Source of the DNA: a bacterium | GTDB lineage: Bacteria; Cyanobacteriota; Vampirovibrionia; Gastranaerophilales; JBAXKC01 | DNA length: 26,835 bases | Assembly (NCBI GenBank): GCA_037137535.1 | Contig: JBAXKC010000033.1 | Span: forward strand, 1-26,835 | Direction: 5' to 3' | Shown here: positions 12,646 through 26,781 of the stretch, in pieces | Layout of the letters: each line of letters begins with the position of its first letter | How positions within the stretch are numbered: the first letter of the stretch is position 1 | Translations under genes and position numbers: made by a program | The notes under the pieces: generated by a model | Seen by the model: the letters and a program-made list of their open reading frames with translations, nothing else | What the model was told of the DNA's origin: nothing | The model's database searches: none

Positions 12646-12736
12646 GGAGAGGTGGCCGAGTCGGTCGAAGGCGGCTTCCTGCTAAGAAGTTGTGTGGTCA
12701 AAAGCTGCACCGTGGGTTCGAATCCCACCCTCTCCG
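12646..12736 (+). tRNA. tRNA-Ser(GCT)
   Basis: GGAGAGG/CCTCTCC acceptor stem, anticodon arm GCTTC-CT GCT AA-GAAGT, long variable arm, GTTCGAATC T-loop. CCA not encoded. Confidence 0.97.
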
Positions 12737-12756: not shown

Positions 12757-12833
12757 GCGCTGGTAGCTCAGTTGGATAGAGTGTTTGGCTACGAACCAAA
12801 AGGTCGGGGGTTCGAATCCCTTCCGGCGCGCCA
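12757..12833 (+). tRNA. tRNA-Arg(ACG)
   Basis: GCGCTGG/CCGGCGC acceptor stem, anticodon arm TTTGG-CT ACG AA-CCAAA, GTTCGAATC, encoded CCA; 77 nt. Confidence 0.97.
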
Positions 12834-14295: not shown

Positions 14296-16296
14296 ATGAA
14301 GGAAGCCTGGCTTGACCTGAAAACGGTAGCCGAGATAAAGGAAATAACCACAAGAGCCCTGCGATTAGCCATTCAAAAGGGTAAGTACAAAACAAGAGAA
14401 ACAATAACTCAAGGAGGAAAAAGCTTTGAAATTCTTTTATCTTCCCTTGAGCCAAAAGTTCAAGATGTGTATAAAAATACATATTATCAGGAAGTCTTAG
14501 AATTAGAAAAACAAATAATTCCCATAACCAAACTTGAACCAAACAACGAAAACTTTATTCCTGATAGTGCTAAAAAGATTGCCCTTGCAAGATTAGACCT
14601 TCTTAATGAATGGCAAAGTTTTAGAATAAAATACAAGCCTAAACAAGCAGGCGATAAGCTTTTTCTTGATTTATACAACTCGGGTGAATATCTAAAAACC
14701 ATATATGAGCTTCTCGGAAGAACTTCGAGAGGCTCTTTGTTAAGGTGGAATAAACTTTACACGGATTATGAAAGCTGGGAAGCCCTTGCTCCTCAGTATA
14801 AATACTCAGGGTTTCAAGAATACCGAACAGTATTAGCAGAAGAACAGATTGCAATATTTTTAAAACTGCTCCTGCATCCAAATCAGTTCAATATCGGTAA
14901 AGCAATAAAACTTTCTACTCACATACTTGAAAGACGAGGCTCTGAGAATATTCCAAAGCCCATCACATTCAGGCGTTATGCAGAATGGTTTAAAAAGAAT
15001 AATTACGATAAATGGATTTTAATGAGAGAAGGAGAAAAAAGTTTAGTCGATAAAATTTCTCCATATATAAAGAGGGATATTTCAAAACTTGCTGTCGGAG
15101 ATGTAATTATAGCAGACGGACACGTTTTAAACTTCCTTTTAATTAACCCGTTTACGGGTAAACCAGTCAGAGCAACACTTGTCGGTTTCCTTGACTGGAA
15201 ATCAGGCTACTTGGTCGGGTATGAAATAATGATGCAGGAAAATACACAATGCATCGCTGCCGCACTAAGAATGGCAATAATAACGATGGATATGCTTCCG
15301 AAAATCGTTTATCAGGATAACGGCAGGGCTTTTAAAGCTAAATATTTCAGCCAATCCGCTGACTTTAGCGAAGCAGGTTTTAACGGAATATATGAAAACT
15401 TAGGAATAAAGCCCGTTTACGCTAGACCCTACAATGCTAAAGCAAAAGTCATCGAAAGGTTTTTTAAAGAATTTCAAGAAGAGTTTGAAAAACTTGTTCC
15501 AAGCTACAGCGGAAGCTCAATAGAAATGAAACCAGCTCATTTAAAAAGAAACGAAAAATTCCATAAAGAGCTTCATAACAAGGTAAATAAAGGATACGTT
15601 CCTACAATAGAAGAAGCAATTAAATTAATAAATGCGTGGCTTGATTTCAGACACTCTCAACCCTGCCCGAATGATAAAAGCAGAAGTATTAAAGATGTTT
15701 TTGACAGCAGGGAAAAACAAAATATCGATAAAAATAAACTTGATGACCTGATGTTGGCTTATGAAGTCAAAACAATTCACCGTAACGGAATAAGGTTCTT
15801 AAATTTTGATTATTACCACGATAACCTTTATGGACTAAGAGATAGAGTAATGATTAAATACAGCCTGTTTGACCTGACTAAAATCAAGGTTTATTCAACA
15901 AAAGGCGAATATATTTGCACCGCAAAAAGAATAACAGGAACTCACCCTATGGCTTATCATCTCGGTGAGATTAAAGATATGGAAGACTTTAAACAGAAAA
16001 TTCAAAAACAAAAGAAATTTAAGAATAAAACTTTAAAAGCCGTTAAAAAATATCTGCCGAAAGAGGATATTAAATTCCTTGAAGTACAGATGGACAGTGA
16101 ATATTTGGAATCAACACCAGATGTGGAAATAAAAAACGAACCACTAATGATAGAAACTCAAATAAAACCTGTATTTATGAATAATTATGAAAGGTATGAA
16201 TGGTTTATAAAAAATGGATGCTCAACGTCTGAAGACAGGCAATGGCTAGCTAATTACAAACAAAGTGATGAGTATAAATTAATTTATGAGGATTAA
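14296..16296 (+). CDS. Mu/TnsB-like DDE transposase 1
   Basis: N-terminal HTH; catalytic IIADGH, YQDNGRAF, KVIERFF; Mu-transposase C-terminal NGIRF...Y...V.IKY; GAGGTG RBS. Confidence 0.92.
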   Translation: MKEAWLDLKTVAEIKEITTRALRLAIQKGKYKTRETITQGGKSFEILLSSLEPKVQDVYKNTYYQEVLELEKQIIPITKLEPNNENFIPDSAKKIALARLDLLNEWQSFRIKYKPKQAGDKLFLDLYNSGEYLKTIYELLGRTSRGSLLRWNKLYTDYESWEALAPQYKYSGFQEYRTVLAEEQIAIFLKLLLHPNQFNIGKAIKLSTHILERRGSENIPKPITFRRYAEWFKKNNYDKWILMREGEKSLVDKISPYIKRDISKLAVGDVIIADGHVLNFLLINPFTGKPVRATLVGFLDWKSGYLVGYEIMMQENTQCIAAALRMAIITMDMLPKIVYQDNGRAFKAKYFSQSADFSEAGFNGIYENLGIKPVYARPYNAKAKVIERFFKEFQEEFEKLVPSYSGSSIEMKPAHLKRNEKFHKELHNKVNKGYVPTIEEAIKLINAWLDFRHSQPCPNDKSRSIKDVFDSREKQNIDKNKLDDLMLAYEVKTIHRNGIRFLNFDYYHDNLYGLRDRVMIKYSLFDLTKIKVYSTKGEYICTAKRITGTHPMAYHLGEIKDMEDFKQKIQKQKKFKNKTLKAVKKYLPKEDIKFLEVQMDSEYLESTPDVEIKNEPLMIETQIKPVFMNNYERYEWFIKNGCSTSEDRQWLANYKQSDEYKLIYED

Positions 16297-16299
16297 AAA

Positions 16300-17007
16300 A
16301 TGAAAAAAACATTTGTAAGAACTCAAAACGTGAAAAACTTTATTTCACTGATGAATTCTATTCAAAACAAACCAGATGGTGTGCCACGAATGGCTTTAGT
16401 CTACGGAGAGCCAGGGCTTGGTAAATCAAGAACAGCTCTGTGGTGGGCTGTTAAAAACGATGCGGTGTATTTAAGAAGTTCAAATATGATGTCAGGAAGA
16501 TGGTTTTTAGAGGAATTAATAGAAGAATTGGGTGAAAGCCCCCTGCATAAATCATCTGATATATTTAATCAGGTTGTAAATCAGCTAATAGATTGCCCAC
16601 GAACAATTATTGTTGATGAAATAGATTATCTGCTTGCTGATTCAAAGGCGATTGAAACATTGAGAGATATTTACGACAGAACAAATGTACCGATTATTTT
16701 AATAGGAATGGGCAAAGCAAATAAAAAGTTTTCAAGATTTAGACATATTTATGACAGATTTTCAGAAATTCTAAAGTTTGAAAGCTTTGATTTTAATGAA
16801 GTCAGCAAGATTATTGAAGAATTGTCAGAAGCCCAAATGGAGGAATCGGCAGTAAAACTGATATTTAATCAGGCAAACAGATTCAGGCAAATTGTAAGCG
16901 TTATATCTAAAGCTGAAAAACTCTCTAAATCAAACTCTAATCTGCTAATAACAGCGGAAATACTTCAATCGGCGATTAAAGATATTATCGAGGATAAAAA
17001 GTTATGA
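16300..17007 (+). CDS. AAA+ ATPase 1 (TnsC/MuB-like, AAA_22), no N-terminal HTH
   Basis: Walker A GEPGLGKS, Walker B IIVDEID, LRDIYD...PIILIGM; 3 bp after transposase 1. Confidence 0.92.
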   Translation: MKKTFVRTQNVKNFISLMNSIQNKPDGVPRMALVYGEPGLGKSRTALWWAVKNDAVYLRSSNMMSGRWFLEELIEELGESPLHKSSDIFNQVVNQLIDCPRTIIVDEIDYLLADSKAIETLRDIYDRTNVPIILIGMGKANKKFSRFRHIYDRFSEILKFESFDFNEVSKIIEELSEAQMEESAVKLIFNQANRFRQIVSVISKAEKLSKSNSNLLITAEILQSAIKDIIEDKKL

Positions 17008-17873
17008 AAAATCAAATATTAAAAGCGGCAAAGGGCTTGCGGACATTTACCATTGAAGATTTAGAACTTGTAACAGGTTTTGAAGAAAGCGAGATACTTG
17101 AAGTTATTCAAGAAAATAATCTTAAATTTAATAACGGAGTTTATTCTTTTCAAGATTTTAAAGAGCAAAAAAATAAAAAGAAAACAGTAAAAAAAGTTGG
17201 CAAAACAATTCTTTTTAAAACCTTTGCCGATAAATATATTAAAAAACTAACCTGTAAAGAATCGACTAAACAAAGCTATGAGATATATTTAAGACTTCAC
17301 CTCTTACCAATATTCGCCCAAAAAAGAATAATAGATATTGATAAAAATGATATTGAAACTTTTAAAAAGTTAAAACTTAAAGAAGGGTTGTCTAATAAAA
17401 GTATTAATAACTTTATTACTCTGCTTTACGGCATATTTGAATGTGCTTTAAATGAAGATTTATTCTTGAAAAATCCTTGTCAGAAAATAGAAAAACTTAA
17501 AACAGAATCTAAAAAACAAAACATATCGCAGGTACAACTGAATAATCTTCTGAACCTGGCTAAAGAAAAGGATTTTTCTTTTTATCTTATGCTTAAAACA
17601 GCAGTTGAAACAGGTTTATCAAGAGGACAGGTTCTTAGTTTAAAGTGGTGCGATATTGATGGCTCTAAAGTTCTTGATAAAACTATTTCTTTAGATTTAA
17701 TGTGTGAATTAAACAAGTGGCATAAAATTTGTCCGATATATTCTAAAAATCTGATTTTTCCTAACAAGAACGGAAACGAAATTCATGCGGATAATATGAT
17801 AAAACGAAAATTCAAACCCCTTGTTAAAGCTGCAGGGCTTGAATCTTTACGGTTTTTAGATTTAAAACTTTAA
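17004..17873 (+). CDS. Catalytically inactive tyrosine-recombinase-like protein with N-terminal winged-helix-like extension
   Basis: Integrase core-binding domain (STKQSYEIYLRLHLLP...LSNKSINN...NPC). Box I reads TGLSRGQ and box II LRFLDLK, then stop; no catalytic Tyr. ATGA overlap with ATPase 1. Confidence 0.85.
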   Translation: MKNQILKAAKGLRTFTIEDLELVTGFEESEILEVIQENNLKFNNGVYSFQDFKEQKNKKKTVKKVGKTILFKTFADKYIKKLTCKESTKQSYEIYLRLHLLPIFAQKRIIDIDKNDIETFKKLKLKEGLSNKSINNFITLLYGIFECALNEDLFLKNPCQKIEKLKTESKKQNISQVQLNNLLNLAKEKDFSFYLMLKTAVETGLSRGQVLSLKWCDIDGSKVLDKTISLDLMCELNKWHKICPIYSKNLIFPNKNGNEIHADNMIKRKFKPLVKAAGLESLRFLDLKL

Positions 17874-17878
17874 TGTTT

Positions 17879-18574
17879 TTACTCCTGCGGAAGTTTTTTC
17901 CCTTGCCAAACAACTTTGCCGATAACTGCAATACCTGATTCTTCATGAATATCAACTGTAAAAGTGCTGTATTCTGGGTTATCGCTCTTAACTTGTAATT
18001 TATTGCCCGGTCTAAGCTCAAGTCTTTTTACAACAAGCGTATCGTCAAATCTTACAACGAATATTCCATCTTTAATAACTATATTAGAGGTGTCAACCAT
18101 AATGAGATCACCATCTTTAATAGTTGGTTCCATCGATTCGCCTTTTACTTCAAGTATTATAAGGCTATTTTTAGGAGCAAGAATATTTTTATTAAACCAT
18201 TGTTTTTCAAATGGATAATGACCGATTACGGCTTCATTATCTATTATGCAGCCCGAACCTGCGGCAGTTTTTCCGTAATAAATAGGAATATATGTAATAT
18301 TTTCAGGATAAACATTTATTCCTGAATCGTCAGCTAAGAACATAGTACCTTTTCCAGCCACTATATATTCAAGATTTGCTGCTAAATTCTCGTACAATAA
18401 AGTTAAATATTCAACAGATGCTTGTCTTTCGCCCCTTTCATAATTACTTATGGTTTTAGGAGCGATATTTATCATTTTGCTTAATTCATCAATAGTAAGA
18501 GCTGATTGAAGTCTAATATTCCTCAATCTTAGTCCTATTTCTTTTAATACTGTTTGATTTAACTCTTTGCCCAT
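17879..18574 (-). CDS. Prophage repressor, XRE HTH + S24 autopeptidase (CI/LexA-like)
   Basis: IGLRLRNIR...TISNYERGER HTH; AAG cleavage site; VKGESMEPTI (Ser) and VVKRL (Lys). Confidence 0.93.
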   Translation of the reverse strand: MGKELNQTVLKEIGLRLRNIRLQSALTIDELSKMINIAPKTISNYERGERQASVEYLTLLYENLAANLEYIVAGKGTMFLADDSGINVYPENITYIPIYYGKTAAGSGCIIDNEAVIGHYPFEKQWFNKNILAPKNSLIILEVKGESMEPTIKDGDLIMVDTSNIVIKDGIFVVRFDDTLVVKRLELRPGNKLQVKSDNPEYSTFTVDIHEESGIAVIGKVVWQGKKLPQE

Positions 18575-18592: not shown

Positions 18593-18674
18593 AATTTAAC
18601 CATATGTTCTTATTTATTGACAATAAGCCCAAATGGTAATAATATAATTTTATTAATACCCGAATGGTAATAAT
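18593..18674. promoter_or_regulatory. Lysis/lysogeny switch: early promoter with 2-3 operator-like repeats
   Basis: TTGACA (18617-18622), 17 bp, TAATAT (18640-18645). CCC(A/G)AATGGTAATAAT at 18628 and 18659; weaker inverted copy at 18593-18615. Confidence 0.7.
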
Positions 18675-18909: not shown

Positions 18910-20895
18910 ATGAGCGGAGTGGAAATAATAAAGAATAATCCTGTGTGGATTGATGAAAATCAAGCCTCCTCTTTGCTTGGACTAAAAATTGAAACTCTAA
19001 GAAAAAACTGTGCTACAGGTAAATATATTTTTGAAAAAATGAAAAATAATGGTGAAAAAGTTGAGTATAGAATACTTTTAAGCTGTTTACCCGAACGTTT
19101 TCAAAATAAATATCATCAATTTAATTCCACGAATGAAACAACTTTTGACCTCGATATAGATATCATGCTTTATAATAAAGCTCCTAATTGGGCTAAAAAA
19201 CAAGCAGATAAATATATTGTAATTCTTACTAATTCCAGAGGATTAAAAGGCAGAGAATTAAGAAAATTTGTTGAAGAATGGAATTGCCAAAATCCTGATT
19301 TTAAAACTTCTTATTCCGCTATTAATGAATCTCGCTTAAGGTACGAGAACGGCGGAACCTCTGCTCTGCTTGCTCAATATGGTAAAACAGCAGGAGCATC
19401 AAAAATAGAGGATAAATATTTTGAATATTTTAAAAACCTTTATCTTGTAGAAGGGGCTCCCTCTGTTTACTCCTGCTGGCTTATAACTCTTGGCTATGCA
19501 ATGAGAGAAGAAGGACTTACAAAAGAACAATTCCCTAAACATTTAAGTTTTAAAAGAAGATTAGAACGTGAAATTCCTACATCTTCAATATATTTAGCAA
19601 GATACGGATACTCAAAATGGAATAAAAAGTTCGCAAACTATGTTGAAAGAGACTATTCTGCCATTAGATGTGGCTCTGTTTGGGTAGCTGACCATGCTCA
19701 AATAGACATAGCCTGTGAAAACCTTGATGGAAAAGTTAGTTATCCCTGGGTTACTGCTTGGCGTTGTTTTAAATCAGGCAAATGGCTTGGCTGGATATTA
19801 CAGCCTAATAATCCAAACTCAGACCATATATTTCAATCATTCTATTATTCGGCAAGTGAATACGGAATTCCTGACGACGTGATTATAGATAATGGCAGAG
19901 ATTTTAGAGCAAAAGATTTCGCCGGCGGAAGAAAATATATTAAAATAAATGCGGACGAACCCTCAACAACTGCAATGCTTGGAAAACTGGGAGTTATTCC
20001 ACATTTTGCACTTCCGTATAATGCTCAAACTAAACCTATTGAAAGAGATTTCCTTAAAATTAAAGAGCTTTTATCAAAGCACGCTGTCGGATATAGAGGC
20101 GGAAACGTTACAGAACGCCCTGAAAAACTTAAAAAAGAAATAGCACAGGGCAAAATATTAAAATTTGAAGAATTTAAAGAAATCTTTGACGATTTTATTG
20201 TCAATGTATTTAATAAAATGAATTCTAACGGTAAAAATCACAAAGGCAAATCCCCTGATGAACTCTTTGCCCTTGAATTTACCGAAAAAAGAGTTGTTTC
20301 AAAAGATGCTTTAATCCTTTTCTGTAAAAGAACTTCAAGAGAATTAACCATTACTCAAAACGGAGTAAGAGATTCCGAACTTGAAATTACATACTGGGCT
20401 GATTGGATGCTCGGTGTTAAAGGCGAAAAAGCATATTTAAGACGTGATGCAAAAAATTATAACGAAGCCTGGATATTTAAAGCTTCTAATGATGAATTAT
20501 TAGGAACGGCATATGTAAAAGAACTTGCTCCTGCATTAGCTAAAGAGCCTGTTTCAAAGGACAGGTTCAAAGAATTTATCTGCGATAAAAAACGTGGAAG
20601 AAAAATTGAAAAAGCTTACTCTCAAAATGAAGAAGTTGAGCTTAATGAAAAAATACTCAATTATAAAACTGTTTTAGGCGATAAAGAATATCTTCTGAAT
20701 CCTAAAATAAATAAAATAGCCAATACTGCTATGGATAAAGCAGTCAGAAAACAAAAAAACAACGAGAAAATAGGGACTCACGATTTATCAATATTCCTTG
20801 AAGAACCGCAAAAAGAACAAAAGCTTTATTTGTTTGAAAGCGACAGGGAAATTGAAAAAGCAGAGCAGGAGTATTTAACAAATTATGGATATTAG
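18910..20895 (+). CDS. MuA-like DDE transposase 2
   Basis: N-terminal HTH; WVADHAQID, IIDNGRDF, KPIERDF triad; canonical c-ner-A-B position. Confidence 0.92.
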   Translation: MSGVEIIKNNPVWIDENQASSLLGLKIETLRKNCATGKYIFEKMKNNGEKVEYRILLSCLPERFQNKYHQFNSTNETTFDLDIDIMLYNKAPNWAKKQADKYIVILTNSRGLKGRELRKFVEEWNCQNPDFKTSYSAINESRLRYENGGTSALLAQYGKTAGASKIEDKYFEYFKNLYLVEGAPSVYSCWLITLGYAMREEGLTKEQFPKHLSFKRRLEREIPTSSIYLARYGYSKWNKKFANYVERDYSAIRCGSVWVADHAQIDIACENLDGKVSYPWVTAWRCFKSGKWLGWILQPNNPNSDHIFQSFYYSASEYGIPDDVIIDNGRDFRAKDFAGGRKYIKINADEPSTTAMLGKLGVIPHFALPYNAQTKPIERDFLKIKELLSKHAVGYRGGNVTERPEKLKKEIAQGKILKFEEFKEIFDDFIVNVFNKMNSNGKNHKGKSPDELFALEFTEKRVVSKDALILFCKRTSRELTITQNGVRDSELEITYWADWMLGVKGEKAYLRRDAKNYNEAWIFKASNDELLGTAYVKELAPALAKEPVSKDRFKEFICDKKRGRKIEKAYSQNEEVELNEKILNYKTVLGDKEYLLNPKINKIANTAMDKAVRKQKNNEKIGTHDLSIFLEEPQKEQKLYLFESDREIEKAEQEYLTNYGY

Positions 20896-21760
20896 AGACG
20901 AATTAAAAATCCTTATGGCTGAAAAGAAATACAGCTTCCAAGCTGTTGCCCGTTCAACCGCCTTATCCCCAACCACTCTTAATATGTGGGTGAATGGCAG
21001 CTATAATGGGAACTCTGAGAAAATAGCAGATATTGTAAATAACTTTATTACTAGAGAAAAAGAAAAATCTCACAAAAAAACAATCCCGTTTGTTGAAACA
21101 TCAATTGCAATGCGAGTTTTTGAGATTGCAAGAATGTGTCATATAAACAGTGAAATAGGTGTTTGCTACGGCTCGGCAGGACTCGGTAAAACCGTTGCAG
21201 CTAAAGAATATACAAAGAATTATCATGATTCAATTCTTATTGAAACTGACCCGGGGTTTAACACTAAAACACTACTCATAGAACTTCATAAAAGGCTTGG
21301 GCTGTCGGCTAAAGGCAATATTTATACTATGACTGATGAAATAATACAAAAAGTCCAAAACTCAGGCAGACTAGTTATTATTGATGAAGCTGAAAACCTT
21401 CCGCATAAAGCTCTTGAGCTCGTAAGAAGAATTCACGATAAAACAGAAATCGGAATCTTGTTAATAGGAATGCCTGCTCTTGTTGAAAACTTAAGAGGCG
21501 AGAAAAACCAGTATGAACAGCTTTATTCAAGAGTTGGTGTTTCTAAAAAACTAGAAAAATTAAATATTAATGATGTAGGGCTTATTCTTGAAACCTTAAA
21601 ACAAGAGAAAAACCTTGCTCTGCCTTATCTTGAACACTCAAAAGGAAATACAAGAGTATTGTCAAAACTGATAAAAAGAGCACCAAGAGTTGCACAGATA
21701 AATAACACAACTGTTTCAACTGCTGTAATAGAAAAAACGTCAAGAATGTTAATAGTATAG
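20885..21760 (+). CDS. MuB-like transposition ATPase 2 with N-terminal HTH
   Basis: SFQAVARSTALSPTTLNMWVNGSY HTH; Walker A GSAGLGKT; Walker B IIDEAE; QLYSRVG arginine finger. Confidence 0.93.
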   Translation: MDIRDELKILMAEKKYSFQAVARSTALSPTTLNMWVNGSYNGNSEKIADIVNNFITREKEKSHKKTIPFVETSIAMRVFEIARMCHINSEIGVCYGSAGLGKTVAAKEYTKNYHDSILIETDPGFNTKTLLIELHKRLGLSAKGNIYTMTDEIIQKVQNSGRLVIIDEAENLPHKALELVRRIHDKTEIGILLIGMPALVENLRGEKNQYEQLYSRVGVSKKLEKLNINDVGLILETLKQEKNLALPYLEHSKGNTRVLSKLIKRAPRVAQINNTTVSTAVIEKTSRMLIV

Positions 21761-21767
21761 GTGATTT

Positions 21768-21899
21768 ATGAGGAATTTTGAAAAAATCGGAATGCTGATT
21801 CTAATAGGTTTGATATTATTCACTTTTGGAATTCAGATTGGTATAAAACATGGTCGTGACTTAGAAAAACAAGAAATTATGGAGGTTTATGGCAACTAG
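21768..21899 (+). CDS. Small single-TM protein (43 aa; not in ORF track)
   Basis: MRNFEKIGMLILIGLILFTFGIQIGIKHGRDLEKQEIMEVYGN; AGGTG RBS; fills the MuB-gemA gap and overlaps the gemA start. Confidence 0.7.
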   Translation: MRNFEKIGMLILIGLILFTFGIQIGIKHGRDLEKQEIMEVYGN

Positions 21900-22317
21900 A
21901 TATGAAATACAAAAGATTCACATGCTTAAAAATGCTTTGAATCTTGATGATGATCTTTACAGAGAAATATTAAACAATTATGGTGCCGAATCCTGTAAAG
22001 AAATACCGCCTCATCTAACAGATGAATTCATCAAATATCTCGAACAAATGGCAATAGAATCAGGCAAATGGAACTTAAAACCAAAAAAGTTTGATGAACT
22101 TGCAAACAGACCTGATATGGCATCACCTAAACAATTAAGGTTAATCGACTATCTATGGAAAATAATATGTGAAAGAAGGGAGAAAGATAATAACTCATTA
22201 AGAAAATTTCTTTATGTAAAATTCAAAGTAAGTGACTTAAGGTTTATCAGCCGAAAGACAGCAAATAAAGTAATAAACGCACTTAAAAATATTGATAGTA
22301 ATTATATTAACGTCTAA
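21889..22317 (+). CDS. gemA: GemA / Mu gp16-family protein (DUF1018)
   Basis: IQKIH..KNALNLDDDLYREIL...SCKE...KQLRLIDYLW...LRKF...ANKVINALK; GGAGG RBS. Confidence 0.85.
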   Translation: MATRYEIQKIHMLKNALNLDDDLYREILNNYGAESCKEIPPHLTDEFIKYLEQMAIESGKWNLKPKKFDELANRPDMASPKQLRLIDYLWKIICERREKDNNSLRKFLYVKFKVSDLRFISRKTANKVINALKNIDSNYINV

Positions 22318-22333
22318 AAAAAGGAGAAACCCA

Positions 22334-22558
22334 ATGGAAATTAAAGACAGAATTACAGGAATTATTTCAAATCAAATTAATGATATTAATGACGAGTTAT
22401 CAGTAACTAAAATCAAGTATGCAGATTTATGTTTAAAAGATGAAGATTGGCATATTAAAGTTAAATTTGAGAAAAAATGTAGAATTCTTGAAGGGCAAAT
22501 AGAAGTATTAGAGCGTATGGCTCAAAATATTGAAGATATATTTGTTCTGGCAGCGTAA
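22334..22558 (+). CDS. Hypothetical helical phage protein (74 aa)
   Basis: AGGAG RBS before ATG 22334 (MEIKDRITG...); lies in the early operon. Confidence 0.7.
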   Translation: MEIKDRITGIISNQINDINDELSVTKIKYADLCLKDEDWHIKVKFEKKCRILEGQIEVLERMAQNIEDIFVLAA

Positions 22559-22559
22559 A

Positions 22560-22611
22560 AGTCGAAACGGGATTTATCCCGTCATATCGTGATGCGGTAT
22601 CTGATGAGACT
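22560..22611 (+). ncRNA. Type II hammerhead ribozyme
   Basis: AGUC (stem II)-GAAA-CGGGA uuua UCCCG (stem III)-UC cleavage site-AUAUCG ugaug CGGUAU (stem I)-CUGAUGA-GACU (stem II). All core nucleotides present; intergenic. Confidence 0.92.
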
Positions 22612-22625
22612 GAGAGGAATCAATA

Positions 22626-22901
22626 ATGAGCGATAAAATATGGCTCGATGACCTTGAAAAGAAACATATTCCTAATGAAGAATTAAGACTTGTTGCTGAA
22701 TACTGCGGATTGAAAGTAGTAGCAGAACTTCTTAAATCTATGCCTGGAGTTGTAATCTATGTCCCAAATCGAGATATTGTTGAATTAAGAGATCAGTATA
22801 TCAGGCAAAAATATGATGGGACAAAAATATCAATGATGGAGCTCGCAAGAGAATTAAGACTATCTGAAAAAACTATTTCTAGCATAATAAAAAAAAAGTA
22901 A
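22626..22901 (+). CDS. mor: Mor/C-family transcription activator
   Basis: LLKSMPGVVIYVP...RDQYIRQKYDG...ELARELRLSEKTISSII; downstream of gemA as in transposable phages. Confidence 0.85.
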   Translation: MSDKIWLDDLEKKHIPNEELRLVAEYCGLKVVAELLKSMPGVVIYVPNRDIVELRDQYIRQKYDGTKISMMELARELRLSEKTISSIIKKK

Positions 22902-22916
22902 CCACTCCAACCTCTT

Positions 22917-22944
22917 ATCAAGGCATCTGCCTTGATTTTTTTTT
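22917..22944 (+). terminator. Intrinsic terminator after mor
   Basis: ATCAAGGC-atct-GCCTTGAT followed by T8. Confidence 0.85.
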
Positions 22945-22986: not shown

Positions 22987-23262
22987 ATGAATAAAGAAGA
23001 ATTAGTACAAAAAGTAGCAGCTACAACTAACAGCACCCAAAAAGAAGCAGCTGAAATTATCACTGCAACAGTAAATGCTATTACTGAAGCAGTTGCAGCA
23101 GGCGAAAAAGTTACATTAGTCGGATTCGGAACTTTTGAAGCTAAAAAACGTGCTGCTAGAAATGGACGTAATCCTCAAACAGGTGAAACCATTGAAATAT
23201 CAGCTAAAACCGTACCAACCTTTACTGCAGGCAAAGCGTTTAAAGATAGTACAAATAAATAG
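22987..23262 (+). CDS. hup: HU-family DNA-binding protein (prophage-borne)
   Basis: MNKEELV...GEKVTLVGFGTFE...RNGRNPQTGETIEI...P.FTAGKAFKD. Confidence 0.95.
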   Translation: MNKEELVQKVAATTNSTQKEAAEIITATVNAITEAVAAGEKVTLVGFGTFEAKKRAARNGRNPQTGETIEISAKTVPTFTAGKAFKDSTNK

Positions 23263-23276
23263 ATTTTAAAACAACT

Positions 23277-23312
23277 AAAAAATACCGAGATACGCAAATC
23301 TCGGTATTTTTT
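23277..23312. terminator. Bidirectional intrinsic terminator between convergent operons
   Basis: A6-TACCGAGAT-acgcaa-ATCTCGGTA-T6. Confidence 0.9.
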
Positions 23313-23324
23313 GTGTATAGGTTT

Positions 23325-23486
23325 TTAAATGCTTGATAAATCCCCATAATCGGTAATATACATCTGACATTTATTATTTACCACGACAACACGTTTAAAC
23401 ATTGAAGCAGGCAGTTCATAGACATCAAGCACAATTACTTCTTCTTTTTTCTCTTCATTAAAAACTTTATCGCCAAATTCTAACAT
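23325..23486 (-). CDS. Small hypothetical beta-rich protein (53 aa; not in ORF track)
   Basis: MLEFGDKVFNEEKKEEVIVLDVYELPASMFKRVVVVNNKCQMYITDYGDLSSI; AAGGA RBS. Confidence 0.7.
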   Translation of the reverse strand: MLEFGDKVFNEEKKEEVIVLDVYELPASMFKRVVVVNNKCQMYITDYGDLSSI

Positions 23487-23502
23487 GTTTTTTATCCTTT
23501 CA

Positions 23503-23712
23503 CTAAATGGCTACGGGCTTCCAGCCGCATTCTTTTTCGATATAGGCAATTACTTTATTAATATCATTACCAAATTCTTTTTTAGCTTTTTCAAGTTCTT
23601 CGCCTACCGATTCACTGCAGTATAAGTCATATGCCAGTTCAAAAAGTGCTGATTCGGTTGTTATGTAATCTGGTTCTATTAGCCATGTGTCAATCATTTT
23701 ATATGTTTTCAT
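23503..23712 (-). CDS. Small hypothetical protein
   Basis: MKTYKMIDTW... start at 23712 after GAGGG; tightly packed with neighbours. Confidence 0.65.
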   Translation of the reverse strand: MKTYKMIDTWLIEPDYITTESALFELAYDLYCSESVGEELEKAKKEFGNDINKVIAYIEKECGWKPVAI

Positions 23713-23714
23713 TT

Positions 23715-23906
23715 TTATCCCTCTACATCTTCCTGCCACATTAGAATTTCAGGGTATAAATCACCGCTAGTCTCATCGTTACTGTATTCTATTTCTGCGA
23801 TTTCACCGATTGCAATGCCACCGATGGCTTTTATTGCGACACCATATTTTTTTGAAAGTTTAGCTAATTCTTTTGTAAATTTTTCAAATCTTTGTTGTTC
23901 GTTCAT
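23715..23906 (-). CDS. Small hypothetical protein (63 aa)
   Basis: MNEQQRFEKFTKELAKLSKKYGVAIKAIGG...; AAGGA RBS; 2-bp gaps to both neighbours. Confidence 0.7.
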   Translation of the reverse strand: MNEQQRFEKFTKELAKLSKKYGVAIKAIGGIAIGEIAEIEYSNDETSGDLYPEILMWQEDVEG

Positions 23907-23908
23907 TT

Positions 23909-24076
23909 CTATTTTCCTTTTTTTACTGATTCTTGCCCTGCTTTATATGCCAGTTCTAAAGCTTCTTTGATATCCCATACTGAATGCTCTTTAAAATCAA
24001 GATGGTCACTGCTTCTGGGTTCAAGCGTTTCAAGGTCTAATATTTCTTTAGCTATCTTTAAAAGTTTTTTATTCAT
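23909..24076 (-). CDS. DUF6900-like small phage protein (55 aa; not in ORF track)
   Basis: MNKKLLKIAKEILDLETLEPRSSDHLDFKEHSVWDIKEALELAYKAGQESVKKGK matches the IA...ETLE.R.SD.LDF....VW....ALE.AY.AG pattern; AGGAG RBS. Confidence 0.8.
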   Translation of the reverse strand: MNKKLLKIAKEILDLETLEPRSSDHLDFKEHSVWDIKEALELAYKAGQESVKKGK

Positions 24077-24158
24077 TTTTAGCTCCTGTATTATCTACAA
24101 TGACAGATTACCTTGACAATCTCACAATGTGTCATCAATGGCGGAAGCTTGAAACAAT

Positions 24159-24479
24159 TCAACACAATATTTTTTCCGTTAATTCTTTTAATTTTTTAAT
24201 ATCGTCTTTAAATTCCTTTTCAGCAGATGTTGGGCTGTTTCTGTATTCGAGGTTATATGCCAGGTTATTAGAAGTTTTCATTATTGAATGGGGTATTGAG
24301 TAAATAATATTCCACTCATCATTTTTTAGAACCGATGCCTTTGCGTAGCATTGGTTTTCGTAAGAATCTGACTTTATATCAATTTTAATTTTCTTATCTT
24401 GAAGGATATAAATTTCCCTGTAGGAAATAGATTGGGAGTTTGATTTGTAGCATATTTTTTCTAATAATTGTGCCTTCAT
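24159..24479 (-). CDS. Hypothetical protein (106 aa)
   Basis: ORF with AAGGA RBS directly following the 86-aa gene. Confidence 0.65.
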   Translation of the reverse strand: MKAQLLEKICYKSNSQSISYREIYILQDKKIKIDIKSDSYENQCYAKASVLKNDEWNIIYSIPHSIMKTSNNLAYNLEYRNSPTSAEKEFKDDIKKLKELTEKILC

Positions 24480-24493
24480 TCTCTTTTCCTTTA

Positions 24494-24754
24494 TTAATCT
24501 ATTAAAAAACTTGCAGGGATATTTAAGGCTTTAAAATCTTTTTCGGTTAAATCCCCATAAAGGCGAGCCTGTTTAATTTCAGCTATCGGCATCAGGTTAT
24601 CGAGGTTTGTTGCGTATAATTTGCCGTTTGTGTCGACTACCTTAGCCCCTGTGGCATCAGCTGCGTCAACATAGCCGAGGTTGTAAGTATTAATTAATAT
24701 TCCGATACTTTGTCTTTTATAATCGTAAACCTTTGTTCCGTATGCGATATCCAT
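24494..24754 (-). CDS. Hypothetical beta-rich protein (86 aa)
   Basis: AGGAG RBS; N-terminal half resembles the 53-aa protein at 23325-23486. Confidence 0.7.
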   Translation of the reverse strand: MDIAYGTKVYDYKRQSIGILINTYNLGYVDAADATGAKVVDTNGKLYATNLDNLMPIAEIKQARLYGDLTEKDFKALNIPASFLID

Positions 24755-24861
24755 TTTTTAACTCCTGTATTATTTGCTAACAATTACAGATTAGCTTGCA
24801 ACTCTCATAATGGAAGCCCATACTAGGAAGTATGAGCTCATTTCGTATCAATCGAACACAG

Positions 24862-25257
24862 TTATTTTTCCCAAGCCCAAGTCTTGATTTCAAAGTTTGC
24901 TCTTTCTCTAGTGTCAGTGTGAACGAATTTAGATTTATCGTATCTAATAACAGTAGAAAATAGCTTAGAGGCAACAGCTTCGGCGTATAAGACTTTGTAA
25001 TCCAAATCAGGTGAAGTAATGTCAAAGGCGATACCTAGCAGATGCTCGCTGTTTACAACTCCACCGACTTCTTTATTATGCTTAGGGCAACGAGTTGAGC
25101 AGTTTACGGTTATTCTGATATTTTTTATATATTTATTTTGCAGATAATATTTAAAAGCTTGAATACTAATAACGGCTTTATCATTAACGATTAATTTTCC
25201 GCAGCATCTGCAGGATAGTTCTTTTTCTGTAAAATTTTCAAGATTTGCCTTAATCAT
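24862..25257 (-). CDS. Peptidase M15A-type endolysin
   Basis: NFT.KEL.CRCCG...RCPKHNKEVGGV.NSEHLLG.AFDI...FVHTDTR Zn-peptidase motifs. Confidence 0.9.
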   Translation of the reverse strand: MIKANLENFTEKELSCRCCGKLIVNDKAVISIQAFKYYLQNKYIKNIRITVNCSTRCPKHNKEVGGVVNSEHLLGIAFDITSPDLDYKVLYAEAVASKLFSTVIRYDKSKFVHTDTRERANFEIKTWAWEK

Positions 25258-25289
25258 GTTTTTTCTCCTAAATCTAATTTAAACGTTGT

Positions 25290-25697
25290 TTAAAACTCCT
25301 TTGGAAACAATATTTCATTGTATGTTTTTGCATTTCCGTTTTTAATCTGCTCTGTAACGTTTAGCCATAGAGTTCTTAAATCCTTAACTTGTTGTTTTTC
25401 CTCATCTGTCATGGATTCCCACCTGATGGCAGGATATTTATCAGCCATTGATTGTAAAGCTGTTTCTCTTTTTTGCCTTGTAAAAGCAAGTAATTCTCCT
25501 ATTGTGGGCATAATCACAGGGGCATCGGCAATAATACCGTTATTAATAATATATTTCCCCTGGTTATTTATTAATAATTGATGTTCTTCCTCAGTTATTT
25601 CAATATTAGGCTCAGGAATTGTTGAATATTCAATATCATATGGATAAAACCCTGTTATTATTCCATCTTCGTCGTTATAATGTACTTTTCCAAACAT
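25290..25697 (-). CDS. Putative tail-fibre assembly chaperone
   Basis: Directly downstream of the tail fibre; GFYP...IPEP.IEITEEEHQLLI and a C-terminal helical hairpin (W.....E.KQ....LR..W). ATG 25697 follows AGGAG. Confidence 0.65.
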   Translation of the reverse strand: MFGKVHYNDEDGIITGFYPYDIEYSTIPEPNIEITEEEHQLLINNQGKYIINNGIIADAPVIMPTIGELLAFTRQKRETALQSMADKYPAIRWESMTDEEKQQVKDLRTLWLNVTEQIKNGNAKTYNEILFPKEF

Positions 25698-25711
25698 TTT
25701 ATATCTCCTTA

Positions 25712-26781
25712 TTAATATCCGACAGCAATCCAATAACAAGGAGCTGACCCATCACCTGCTGAACGAGTAAAACCTGTAGCTGATTTTGATGATAAACAGT
25801 TATATTGCCCTGCAATTGCACCTGTACTGTTATATTGAGCTTGCATCAGCACAAACAGACAAGCTGCAGAAAAAGCAATAGGGAATGTTATTGATGTACC
25901 GGTTGAAGTATATCCCCATTGTAAAATTAAACCGTTGGGCAATTTTGTATAACCGTTTGAAGCTAATGAACTTGCAAACTGACATAAATTAACTGCTTCA
26001 GTTGAATTAACGGCATTTGCTACTTGAAAAGCGTTTGAGGGATTGCCTAAAGCTTTTGCATAAGCTGAACCTGCAAGCCCATCAAGAAAATTAGCATTTG
26101 CTTGATGAATACTAGGATCAATACCTGTAATATTTTTAGCTTTAATAATGTATTTGCAGGAGCGGTTTACCATTCTAGTTTCAGGTGCAATTCTTGGAGT
26201 ACCGTTTATTCCATCAGAAACCAGTCCCACTTTATTAGGGAAATTAGCATCAAACCCTGCATATTTAGGCGTAGCAGTTGTTGCGGATTCTCCTGTCCAG
26301 CCTAAGGTATTAGTCGAATCTAGTCCAAATTTATGACCTTGAATGGCATCAAGTTCAACAGTTCCTAATTTTCTGCCTGTAAATATTATGGAAGTTCCTG
26401 TAGCGGTTGCTATTGCATTTGCCGAAATTTTAATACTTGTAGTATTAGCTATTTCTGAAACGGTTGCACCAACAGGTATTCCTGCACCTGAAACAGGCAT
26501 ACCGACAAACATAAATGATGTATACACCAAGCCTGTTATGACATTTGAACCGCTTGTCGTATTTGCGTTAAAAGTTGTTTTATCATATCTTCCAGAATTT
26601 CCCCCGTAATTTCTGAATATTTCATCAGAACAATCTGCAATTTTAAATTTTGTTGTATCAGCATCTTCAAAAAACAGCCCCGAACCAACCATCCCATTAT
26701 TGAGAGCTTTTTGCCATAATTCAGAGTAATCAGCTTTGAAAAGAATTGCACCATTAAATTCTAAATATCCTGCTGGTATTG
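25712..26781 (-). pseudogene. Tail-fibre protein, 3' part, interrupted within its collar domain by an IS end
   Basis: Frame is open upstream of the track ORF: IPAGYLEFNGAILFKADYSELW (tail collar), then LG..E.DAIQGH, ETRMVN...YIIKA and NGYTKLPNGLILQWG (gp53-like tip). An in-frame TAG lies inside the IS-like end. Confidence 0.8.

Follow-up and report, generated by a model that had tools for sequence, protein, structure and literature searches.

The stretch of DNA analyzed here (the window; 26,835 nt, contig JBAXKC010000033.1) comes from a bacterium of the order Gastranaerophilales and carries the early region of a Mu-like prophage, in which a small open reading frame (ORF) is followed by mor, a gene for a Mor/C-family transcription activator. 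At 22559-22611 on the forward strand, in the gap between the two, lies a complete type II hammerhead ribozyme with its core and all three stems, confirming what was observed in a preliminary description of the same DNA. The parts of the ribozyme, the ribosome-binding site (RBS) that follows it and mor are as follows:

22559 (+): A directly 5′ of stem II, invariant in relatives (45/45, 108/109 and 163/163 in three member sets)
22560-22611 (+): the whole type II hammerhead (core and stems read from the sequence; short folds; covariance model R1, described below)
22560-22563 (+): 5′ strand of stem II, AGUC, pairing with 22608-22611; the open stem (from sequence)
22564-22567 (+): core GAAA, i.e., G12, A13, A14 and A15.1 (from sequence)
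22567-22582 (+): stem III, a 6-bp hairpin with the loop UUUA (sequence and minimum-energy folds)
22583-22584 (+): C17 and the predicted scissile bond C22583/A22584, placed by the hammerhead consensus position only
22584-22600 (+): stem I, a 6-bp hairpin with the loop UGAUG at 22590-22594 (from sequence)
22601-22607 (+): core CUGAUGA, C3 to A9 (from sequence)
22608-22611 (+): 3′ strand of stem II, GACU; G10.1 is G22608 (from sequence)
22612-22617 (+): putative RBS, GAGAGG, 8 nt before the ATG of mor (from sequence)
22626-22901 (+): mor, Mor/C-family transcription activator, 91 aa (Pfam Mor, 6.7e-10; PHROG 836/532, "late transcriptional activator")

Read from the 5′ end, the order of the strands is stem II strand, GAAA, hairpin III, C17, hairpin I, CUGAUGA and stem II strand. 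Loops cap stems I and III, and both the 5′ and 3′ ends exit through stem II, which is the type II permutation. Stem II consists of four pairs (A22560-U22611, G22561-C22610, U22562-A22609 and C22563-G22608), stem III runs from A22567-U22582 to A22572-U22577, and stem I (AUAUCG-UGAUG-CGGUAU) runs from A22584-U22600 to G22589-C22595, including the pair U22587-G22597. All core residues of the hammerhead class were found in place, namely C3, U4, G5, A6, N7, G8 and A9, then G12, A13 and A14, and C22583 as H17; the closing pairs G10.1-C11.1 (G22608-C22563) and A15.1-U16.1 (A22567-U22582) are present as well. The upstream ORF ends with a TAA at 22556-22558, a single nucleotide (A22559) precedes stem II, and stem II and the RBS are 0 nt apart, within a gap of 67 nt between the stop codon and the start of mor. 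The full core, the three paired stems, their positions and the 67-nt gap had all been given correctly in the preliminary description; its assignment to type II and its predicted cleavage after C22583 also stand, the latter as a position derived from the consensus.

Minimum-energy folds of 52 and 75 nt gave exactly the three-way junction. A strict descriptor (CUGAUGAG, CGAAA, stems of at least 4/3/4 bp and a span of at most 100 nt) was run on the source genome (2.95 Mb, 31% G+C) and on 15 Markov-1 simulated genomes, and returned one site in the former, the one described here, and 0 in the 15 simulated genomes. With a relaxed descriptor, 7 sites were found in the genome against a mean of 2.1 in the simulated ones. 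DNA contigs assembled from sequencing runs cover the locus in fragments only; the one that spans the ribozyme (22556-22611), a low-depth contig of run X5, is without A22572 and U22577, the partners of one stem III pair.

Relatives of the element were collected with two patterns. The first, taken from the site itself with stems I and II left free (CGAAACGGG-N3-8-CCCGTC-N12-30-CTGATGAG), matched at least 121 loci on viral contigs and yielded a set of 125 distinct elements, the window's included; all counts for viral elements and viral sites, here and below, are among the matches listed. Although the pattern did not require pairing there, stem I had at least 4 bp in 123 of the 125. Stem II lengths of 4, 3, 2, 5 and 1 bp were seen in 57, 45, 15, 5 and 3 elements, respectively. 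The form seen in the window was the largest class (45/125, including the window), with stem I closed by G-C in 44/45, stem II of 4 bp in 42/45, an A directly 5′ of stem II in 45/45, and a U-N-A-N-G loop (U 45/45, A 38/45, G 44/45). The second pattern was run on prokaryote genomes with stem III free and only the dimensions of this compact form fixed. It returned 118 stretches holding 109 distinct elements from many prokaryote phyla, whereas a control pattern that extended stem I by a base at either side while specifying the same number of bases returned 0 stretches from prokaryote genomes. The five free stem I pairs were all paired in 103 of the 109, stem II was exactly 4 bp in 101, at least five contiguous stem III pairs of diverse sequence were formed in 100, and the base 5′ of stem II was an A in 108. 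When the viral and genomic elements were pooled (163 distinct elements), this A was found in 163/163, an A as the middle loop base in 155 and an A as the first base after stem II in 127.

An alignment of 42 viral class members that excluded the window (A1) showed strong covariation: 99.3% of the cells were paired, 0 of 500 shuffles reached as high a value, and double changes occurred in 3/4 stem II pairs and 6/6 stem I pairs. The covariance model R1 was built from these 42 sequences, the window again excluded. It scored 22560-22611 of the window at 65.4 bits (E 7.5e-19), with the next match at 11 bits, and in a search of the whole genome the site was its only match (E 8.2e-17). A third set, consisting of the 31 hammerheads (28 distinct, including the window's) linked to mor genes, was 100% paired, again with 0 of 500 shuffles as high, and had double changes in 12/16 pairs, including 4/6 of stem III and 3/4 of stem II; its pairing is to be read with the caveat that the alignment was fitted to the model. 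The helices of the hammerhead are backed by covariation in relatives, and the stem covariation among homologs on which the preliminary description had staked its reading proved strong in the A1, genome and mor-linked sets alike.

Some contigs carried several such elements. At least three compact hammerheads within ~2.5 kb of one another, on one strand, were found on a Phycicoccus jejuensis contig (L154-L156), a Streptomyces iakyrus contig (L164-L166) and one IMG/VR contig (L081/L082). On the two actinobacterial contigs the elements are spaced alike, suggesting that both genera carry the same prophage.

Four features define the compact form, and the window's element has every one of them (stem I, loop, AGUC/GACU and A22559): stem I is 6 bp long with a closing G-C pair, its loop reads U-N-A-N-G, stem II is 4 bp long, and an A stands on the 5′ side of stem II. 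Stem III is variable. The Rfam family for type II hammerheads, RF02276 (gathering score 37 bits; library Rfam 15), has, by inspection of its alignments, a longer stem I and a 3′ tail of eight positions (AGCCaAAg), and so represents the pseudoknot form that Perreault et al. described (PMC3088659). At the gathering score this model found 8 of 10 viral loci of the long-loop pseudoknot form and 0 of 10 of the compact form. It likewise found 0 of 23 further compact elements (21 in 13 mor-linked loci and 2 in L261), so that all 33 compact examples tested were missed, in addition to the window. The compact type II form thus escapes Rfam 15, and it goes beyond what our literature search turned up. Because Rfam 15 misses it, routine annotation undercounts phage ribozymes; a model such as R1 closes this gap. 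In five distant Mor loci on viral contigs (L131-L135), out of 11 found through the Mor protein, an RF02276 hammerhead (55-76 bits, positions 22-181) was found ~1.0-1.15 kb upstream of mor on the same strand. Mu-like early regions thus hold the pseudoknot form as well, though at another junction.

The preliminary description had also raised, as speculation, a pairing of loop I (UGAU) with AUCA at 22619-22622. This 4-nt complement does lie in the window, 7 nt into the tail, but it is no feature of the family: a 4-nt loop complement within 30 nt of tail was present in 7/45 class members against 8.4 expected from shuffled tails, and no covariation between loop and tail was seen among the 163 pooled members. 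A loop I-AUCA pseudoknot was rejected on these grounds. The window's element has no pseudoknot above chance of the kind that belongs to RF02276, in which loop I pairs with bases 3′ of stem II.

The surroundings of these elements were similar from locus to locus. An upstream ORF was present at 123 of 127 viral sites. Its stop codon preceded C11.1 by a median of 3 nt, and in 116 of the 123 cases stop codon and ribozyme were 0-9 nt apart. A downstream start codon was present at 119 of 127, at a median of 27 nt after the core. The genome set was alike (upstream ORF 98/109, downstream start 100/109). A hidden Markov model of Mor, built from an alignment of Mor relatives (A2), was then run on same-strand ORFs within ~1.5 kb of 235 hammerhead sites. 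A Mor-family ORF lay downstream on the same strand at 21 of them and wholly upstream at none. In 19 of these 21 loci the hammerhead was the last element before the start of mor; the gap was 3-37 nt in 18 loci (16, together with L152 and L169, where a second hammerhead with a CUGACGA core occupies the slot before mor) and 78 nt in L198. In L044 and L071 other genes lie between the hammerhead and mor. The Mor proteins of these loci were 23-44% identical to that of the window over the aligned part. As a whole, the succession of stop codon, hammerhead, RBS and mor recurs in 19 other loci, with MuB and/or GemA upstream wherever the flanks reach (GemA in 13 mor-linked loci; in some, Gam or DUF3164 directly precedes the ribozyme). 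This recurrence, with covarying stems and MuB/GemA upstream, argues that the position is under selection. Judged by sequence, the hammerhead-mor junction is kept in one clade, and it too goes beyond what the literature search turned up.

With a single Mor protein as query, no viral locus was found; a word-index search with Mor returned one 75%-identical protein, and the GTDB family of the source organism holds only the source genome. A sample of 400 genomes from the phylum held 7 other genomes with Mor; one of these has the junction, and it is of the same order as the source. In 12 Mu-like prophage loci (L148, L150, L152, L153, L157, L169, L174, L175, L201, L202, L212 and L261) two compact hammerheads bracket an ORF of ~90-110 aa that precedes mor, and one hammerhead in each pair has a longer stem III, for a length of ~65 nt. 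The hammerhead of L198 lies at 1068-1129 on the reverse strand, and its 78-nt spacer to mor holds a hairpin followed by CUGACGAG-GUC with no matching GAAA or stem III; this spacer may be the remnant of a second hammerhead. L169, on a contig binned as a Methanobacteriaceae archaeon, has a MuB-GemA-hammerhead-mor block closely like those in Gastranaerophilales metagenome-assembled genomes; either the contig was binned wrongly or the prophage may truly have jumped hosts.

In the window, the genes and sites around the ribozyme and mor are as follows:

17879-18574 (-): S24/HTH repressor gene, divergent (domain search)
18617-18645 (+): TTGACA-17-TAATAT, a promoter-like site that faces the repressor gene and lies ahead of the MuA-like gene; candidate early promoter (pattern match only, 10/12 consensus)
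18910-20895 (+): MuA-like transposase (Pfam DDE_2, 3.2e-09; HTH_Tnp_Mu_2, 4.6e-06)
20885-21760 (+): MuB-like AAA ATPase (Pfam AAA_22, 8.6e-20)
21889-22317 (+): GemA-family gene (Pfam GemA, 3.2e-14)
22292-22558 (+): small ORF of no Pfam or PHROG family, 88 aa from TTG or 74 aa from the ATG at 22334
22917-22944 (+): terminator-like hairpin and T8, 16 nt after the mor stop codon (pattern match only)

MuA, MuB, GemA and Mor are encoded on one strand with a divergent repressor, which is the arrangement of a Mu-like early operon, and the Pfam and PHROG results bear out the earlier placement of the hammerhead in such an operon, directly before a Mor-family gene. The terminator-like site after mor consists of an 8-bp stem with 4 G-C pairs, followed by TTTTTTTT.

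From the anatomy of the element, its covariation-backed family membership and its position before mor, we infer cleavage in vivo, the properties of the products and an effect on mor. The hammerhead in the window is probably active in self-cleavage. We consider it likely that, as the best explanation of the whole, a genuine compact type II hammerhead cuts the early RNA at C22583/A22584, frees the mor mRNA and uncouples mor. The ribozyme would be transcribed within an early operon of ~4.3 kb (MuA, MuB, GemA, the small ORF and mor) and would cut itself between C22583 and A22584. The upstream early RNA would then end in the stem III hairpin with a 2′,3′-cyclic phosphate. The downstream RNA would start with a 5′-OH within the paired stem I, with the RBS 28 nt further on, and would extend from 22584 to the terminator-like site at ~22944 as a monocistronic mor mRNA of ~360 nt. 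Each product would end in a hairpin because stems III and I are closed hairpins flanking the cut; of the three circular permutations, only type II places a closed hairpin on both sides. The products should also separate, since only the 4-bp stem II holds them together. The stability and translation of mor would in this way be uncoupled from the long transposase/early RNA. The probable route is protection of the mor mRNA from 5′-end-dependent decay by the host RNase E, an enzyme whose action on RNA of this kind should be slowed by a 5′-OH and a paired 5′ end. A homolog of RNase E/G is encoded in the host genome, and the C-terminal domain of RNase J was not found in the host search. Mor is the activator of the Mu middle operon (10.1101/2025.05.02.651988), and an uncoupled mor mRNA could therefore set the onset of the later program. 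The interpretation offered in the preliminary description is partly supported: the type, predicted cut and setting of the element stand, whereas the idea that self-cleavage detaches a 5′-OH mor mRNA from the long early transcript and tunes the timing or stability of the early-to-late switch is a proposal.

Several results count against this proposal or limit what can be built on it. The stability of the fold relative to shuffled sequences was weak and uninformative (z -1.0 for 52 nt and -0.5 for 75 nt), and in a 181-nt context stem III was retained while stems I and II were lost (z -0.9). R1 and the A1 sequences were fished with a site-derived pattern, which makes the matches in the core and stem III partly circular; stem I pairing in A1 was selected by the class definition, and stem III was fixed by the pattern. 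At the Rfam gathering score no hammerhead was matched, a cmscan of the window returning two tRNAs only, and there was no Rfam hammerhead match even at E<=10 in 221 nt or 79 nt around the site. A whole-genome scan with RF02276 gave nothing at the site and a sole 15-bit match on another contig. The Infernal search with the Rfam Hammerhead_II model proposed in the preliminary description was accordingly negative throughout. The absence of an Rfam match reflects the scope of RF02276, which is the pseudoknot form, and not a defect of the site. The compact form is also without the loop I-tail pseudoknot that a tested type II ribozyme needed for fast cleavage, as described in PMC3088659. Most compact hammerheads precede small ORFs of no known family rather than mor; among the downstream ORFs, Pfam assigned a family to 15 of the first 80 from the viral set and to 8 of 100 from genomes. 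Among mor loci sampled without regard to ribozymes, 1 of 18 has a hammerhead directly upstream: none of the 11 viral Mor loci found through the protein (with a 6-sequence alignment) and 1 of the 7 from genomes of the phylum. Conservation before mor in related prophages, a check proposed in the preliminary description, was found in the 19 other loci and is not general. Because most such hammerheads precede other genes and only 1 of 18 mor loci has one, a mor-specific role is not required by the data.

These last counts are also what an active ribozyme serving as generic operon punctuation would produce, the slot before mor being one of many and having no special link to mor or to the switch. 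Such a role, which is equally simple as the uncoupling of mor, is a real if tentative possibility. Several contigs have two or three hammerheads flanking successive small genes, and tandem hammerheads in prophages have been described (PMC3088659). What generic punctuation leaves unexplained is that Mor is the most recurrent identifiable neighbor, always downstream (21/235, none wholly upstream), and that the hammerhead abuts the start of mor in 19 of 21 loci whose Mor proteins are as diverged as 23-44% identity to the window's. Further from what we expect is the opposite emphasis, a dedicated device. The hammerhead-mor junction might be a regulatory device of the Mu-like phage clade in which the lifetime of the mor mRNA times the later program and stem I docks on stem II through an uncharacterized tertiary contact; taken jointly, this is rather unlikely. 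The contact would involve the invariant 5′ A (163/163) and the U, A and G of the loop. Docking of stem I on stem II would account for the fixed 6-bp and 4-bp stems and for the misses by the family model, and the type II topology would be used because no other permutation gives each of the new RNA ends a hairpin.

The cut could instead serve mainly the upstream product, by ending or marking the early RNA and stabilizing it through stem III or limiting read-through coupling, with mor secondary. The closeness of the upstream stop codon (0-9 nt in 116/123 viral cases among the matches listed, 1 nt in the window) fits such a role, as does the topology, in which the stem III hairpin becomes the new 3′ end. 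Yet the conserved partner is the downstream mor, while the upstream gene varies (family-less small ORF, Gam or DUF3164), and we regard this account as unlikely. Still less credence goes to a conditional ribozyme, a translation-coupled switch whose 4-bp stem II would be blocked by a ribosome terminating at the UAA (22556-22558) or by a 30S subunit bound to the RBS (22612-22617), so that cleavage would report on translation of the adjacent cistrons. Stem II is short and fixed in length, and the packing is tight, with 1 nt from stop codon to stem II and 0 nt from stem II to the RBS, and recurs across the family; compact spacing would, however, also follow from phage genome economy, the argument is purely inferential, and hammerheads generally fold and cut while they are being transcribed. 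That the element is a chance look-alike, an inactive relic, or a pair of hairpins with the role of terminator, attenuator or protein-binding site is extremely unlikely. The missing Rfam match, the weak fold z-scores and the alternative fold in longer context are what such an object would give, but the strict descriptor found 0 sites in 15 simulated genomes, R1 matched the window at E 7.5e-19, and hundreds of covarying relatives have the same fixed dimensions. The terminator or attenuator version was rejected: no T-run follows either hairpin, and a terminator-like site is found after mor instead.

Prophage type II hammerheads, and their enrichment near Mu-like phage genes, have been in print since 2011-2015. 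Perreault et al. 2011 (PMC3088659) described type II hammerheads as common among bacteria and as frequently flanking prophage genes, with cleavage in vitro and in E. coli. The window's element shares with these and with RF02276 the core, the permutation with a short, open stem II and the intergenic prophage setting; in contrast to the published consensus, with its pseudoknot between loop I and the 3′ tail, it has a 5-nt loop I and no pseudoknot above chance. The same source describes tandem prophage hammerheads in the ardA region of Agrobacterium tumefaciens, in Clostridium scindens and in Azorhizobium caulinodans, with ~2-kb polycistronic RNAs cleaved in vitro and, for A. tumefaciens, also in E. 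coli. The position between cistrons of one phage transcript is the same, and relatives of the window's element are also found in pairs around the gene before mor; in the window, however, the hammerhead is single and its downstream gene encodes a Mor activator and not ardA. Three type II hammerheads of Desulfovibrio vulgaris were active in vivo by cyPhyRNA-seq (PMC8782182). They lie near hypothetical and phage-like genes, and their two cleavage products were captured from total RNA. In that report the minimal 3′ fragment is 39 nt against 28 nt (22584-22611) in the window; by length, their larger fragment is in keeping with the longer pseudoknot form.

Hammerhead and twister ribozymes are the classes most strongly associated with Mu-like phage genes, for reasons that were unknown (Roth 2014 and Weinberg 2015, as cited in PMC10085705). 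The window likewise has a hammerhead in a Mu-like early region; the introduction of PMC10085705 names no gene, and none is named in the passages found in PMC5737381. A role in the processing of polycistronic transcripts has only been suggested (review PMC6765202). Our literature search returned hammerheads and Mu-like phages combined in one paper only, and no paper joining a ribozyme with Mor, within a scope that excluded the 2014-2015 primary papers and the supplements of PMC3088659, which may cover the compact form or the junction with mor.

Engineered ribozyme insulators placed before an RBS, such as RiboJ, are synthetic and derive from a satellite-RNA hammerhead. The window's element resembles them in cutting off the upstream RNA, as predicted, and leaving a 5′ end led by a hairpin before the RBS; it differs in being natural and of type II topology. 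The locus is a clean natural test case, with one ribozyme, a named downstream gene of known role and a terminator-like site right behind it, so that what cleavage does to a single short mRNA, and to a developmental switch that can be measured, is directly assayable here.

Other parts of the window concern the prophage and its neighbor. Directly after mor, in the place of the middle operon of Mu, an HU-family gene (22987-23262, +; Pfam Bac_DNA_binding, 5.9e-33) lies alone between the terminator-like sites 22917-22944 and 23277-23312. The ORFs from 23325 to 26692 are all on the reverse strand, convergent with the early operon, an orientation seldom expected of a Mu-like phage. Among them are genes for an M15 peptidase (24862-25257) and for a protein with a tail-fiber gp53-like C-terminus (25712-26692); the contig ends at 26835. 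A second mobile module at 14296-17873 (+) adjoins the prophage repressor, downstream of tRNA genes at 12646-12736 and 12757-12830. Its products are a protein of 666 aa in which Mu-transposase C-terminal and rve domains were recognized, an ATPase (TniB/AAA_22) and a tyrosine recombinase. The module resembles a transposon of the Tn7/Tn5053 type or another transposable element inserted beside the prophage.

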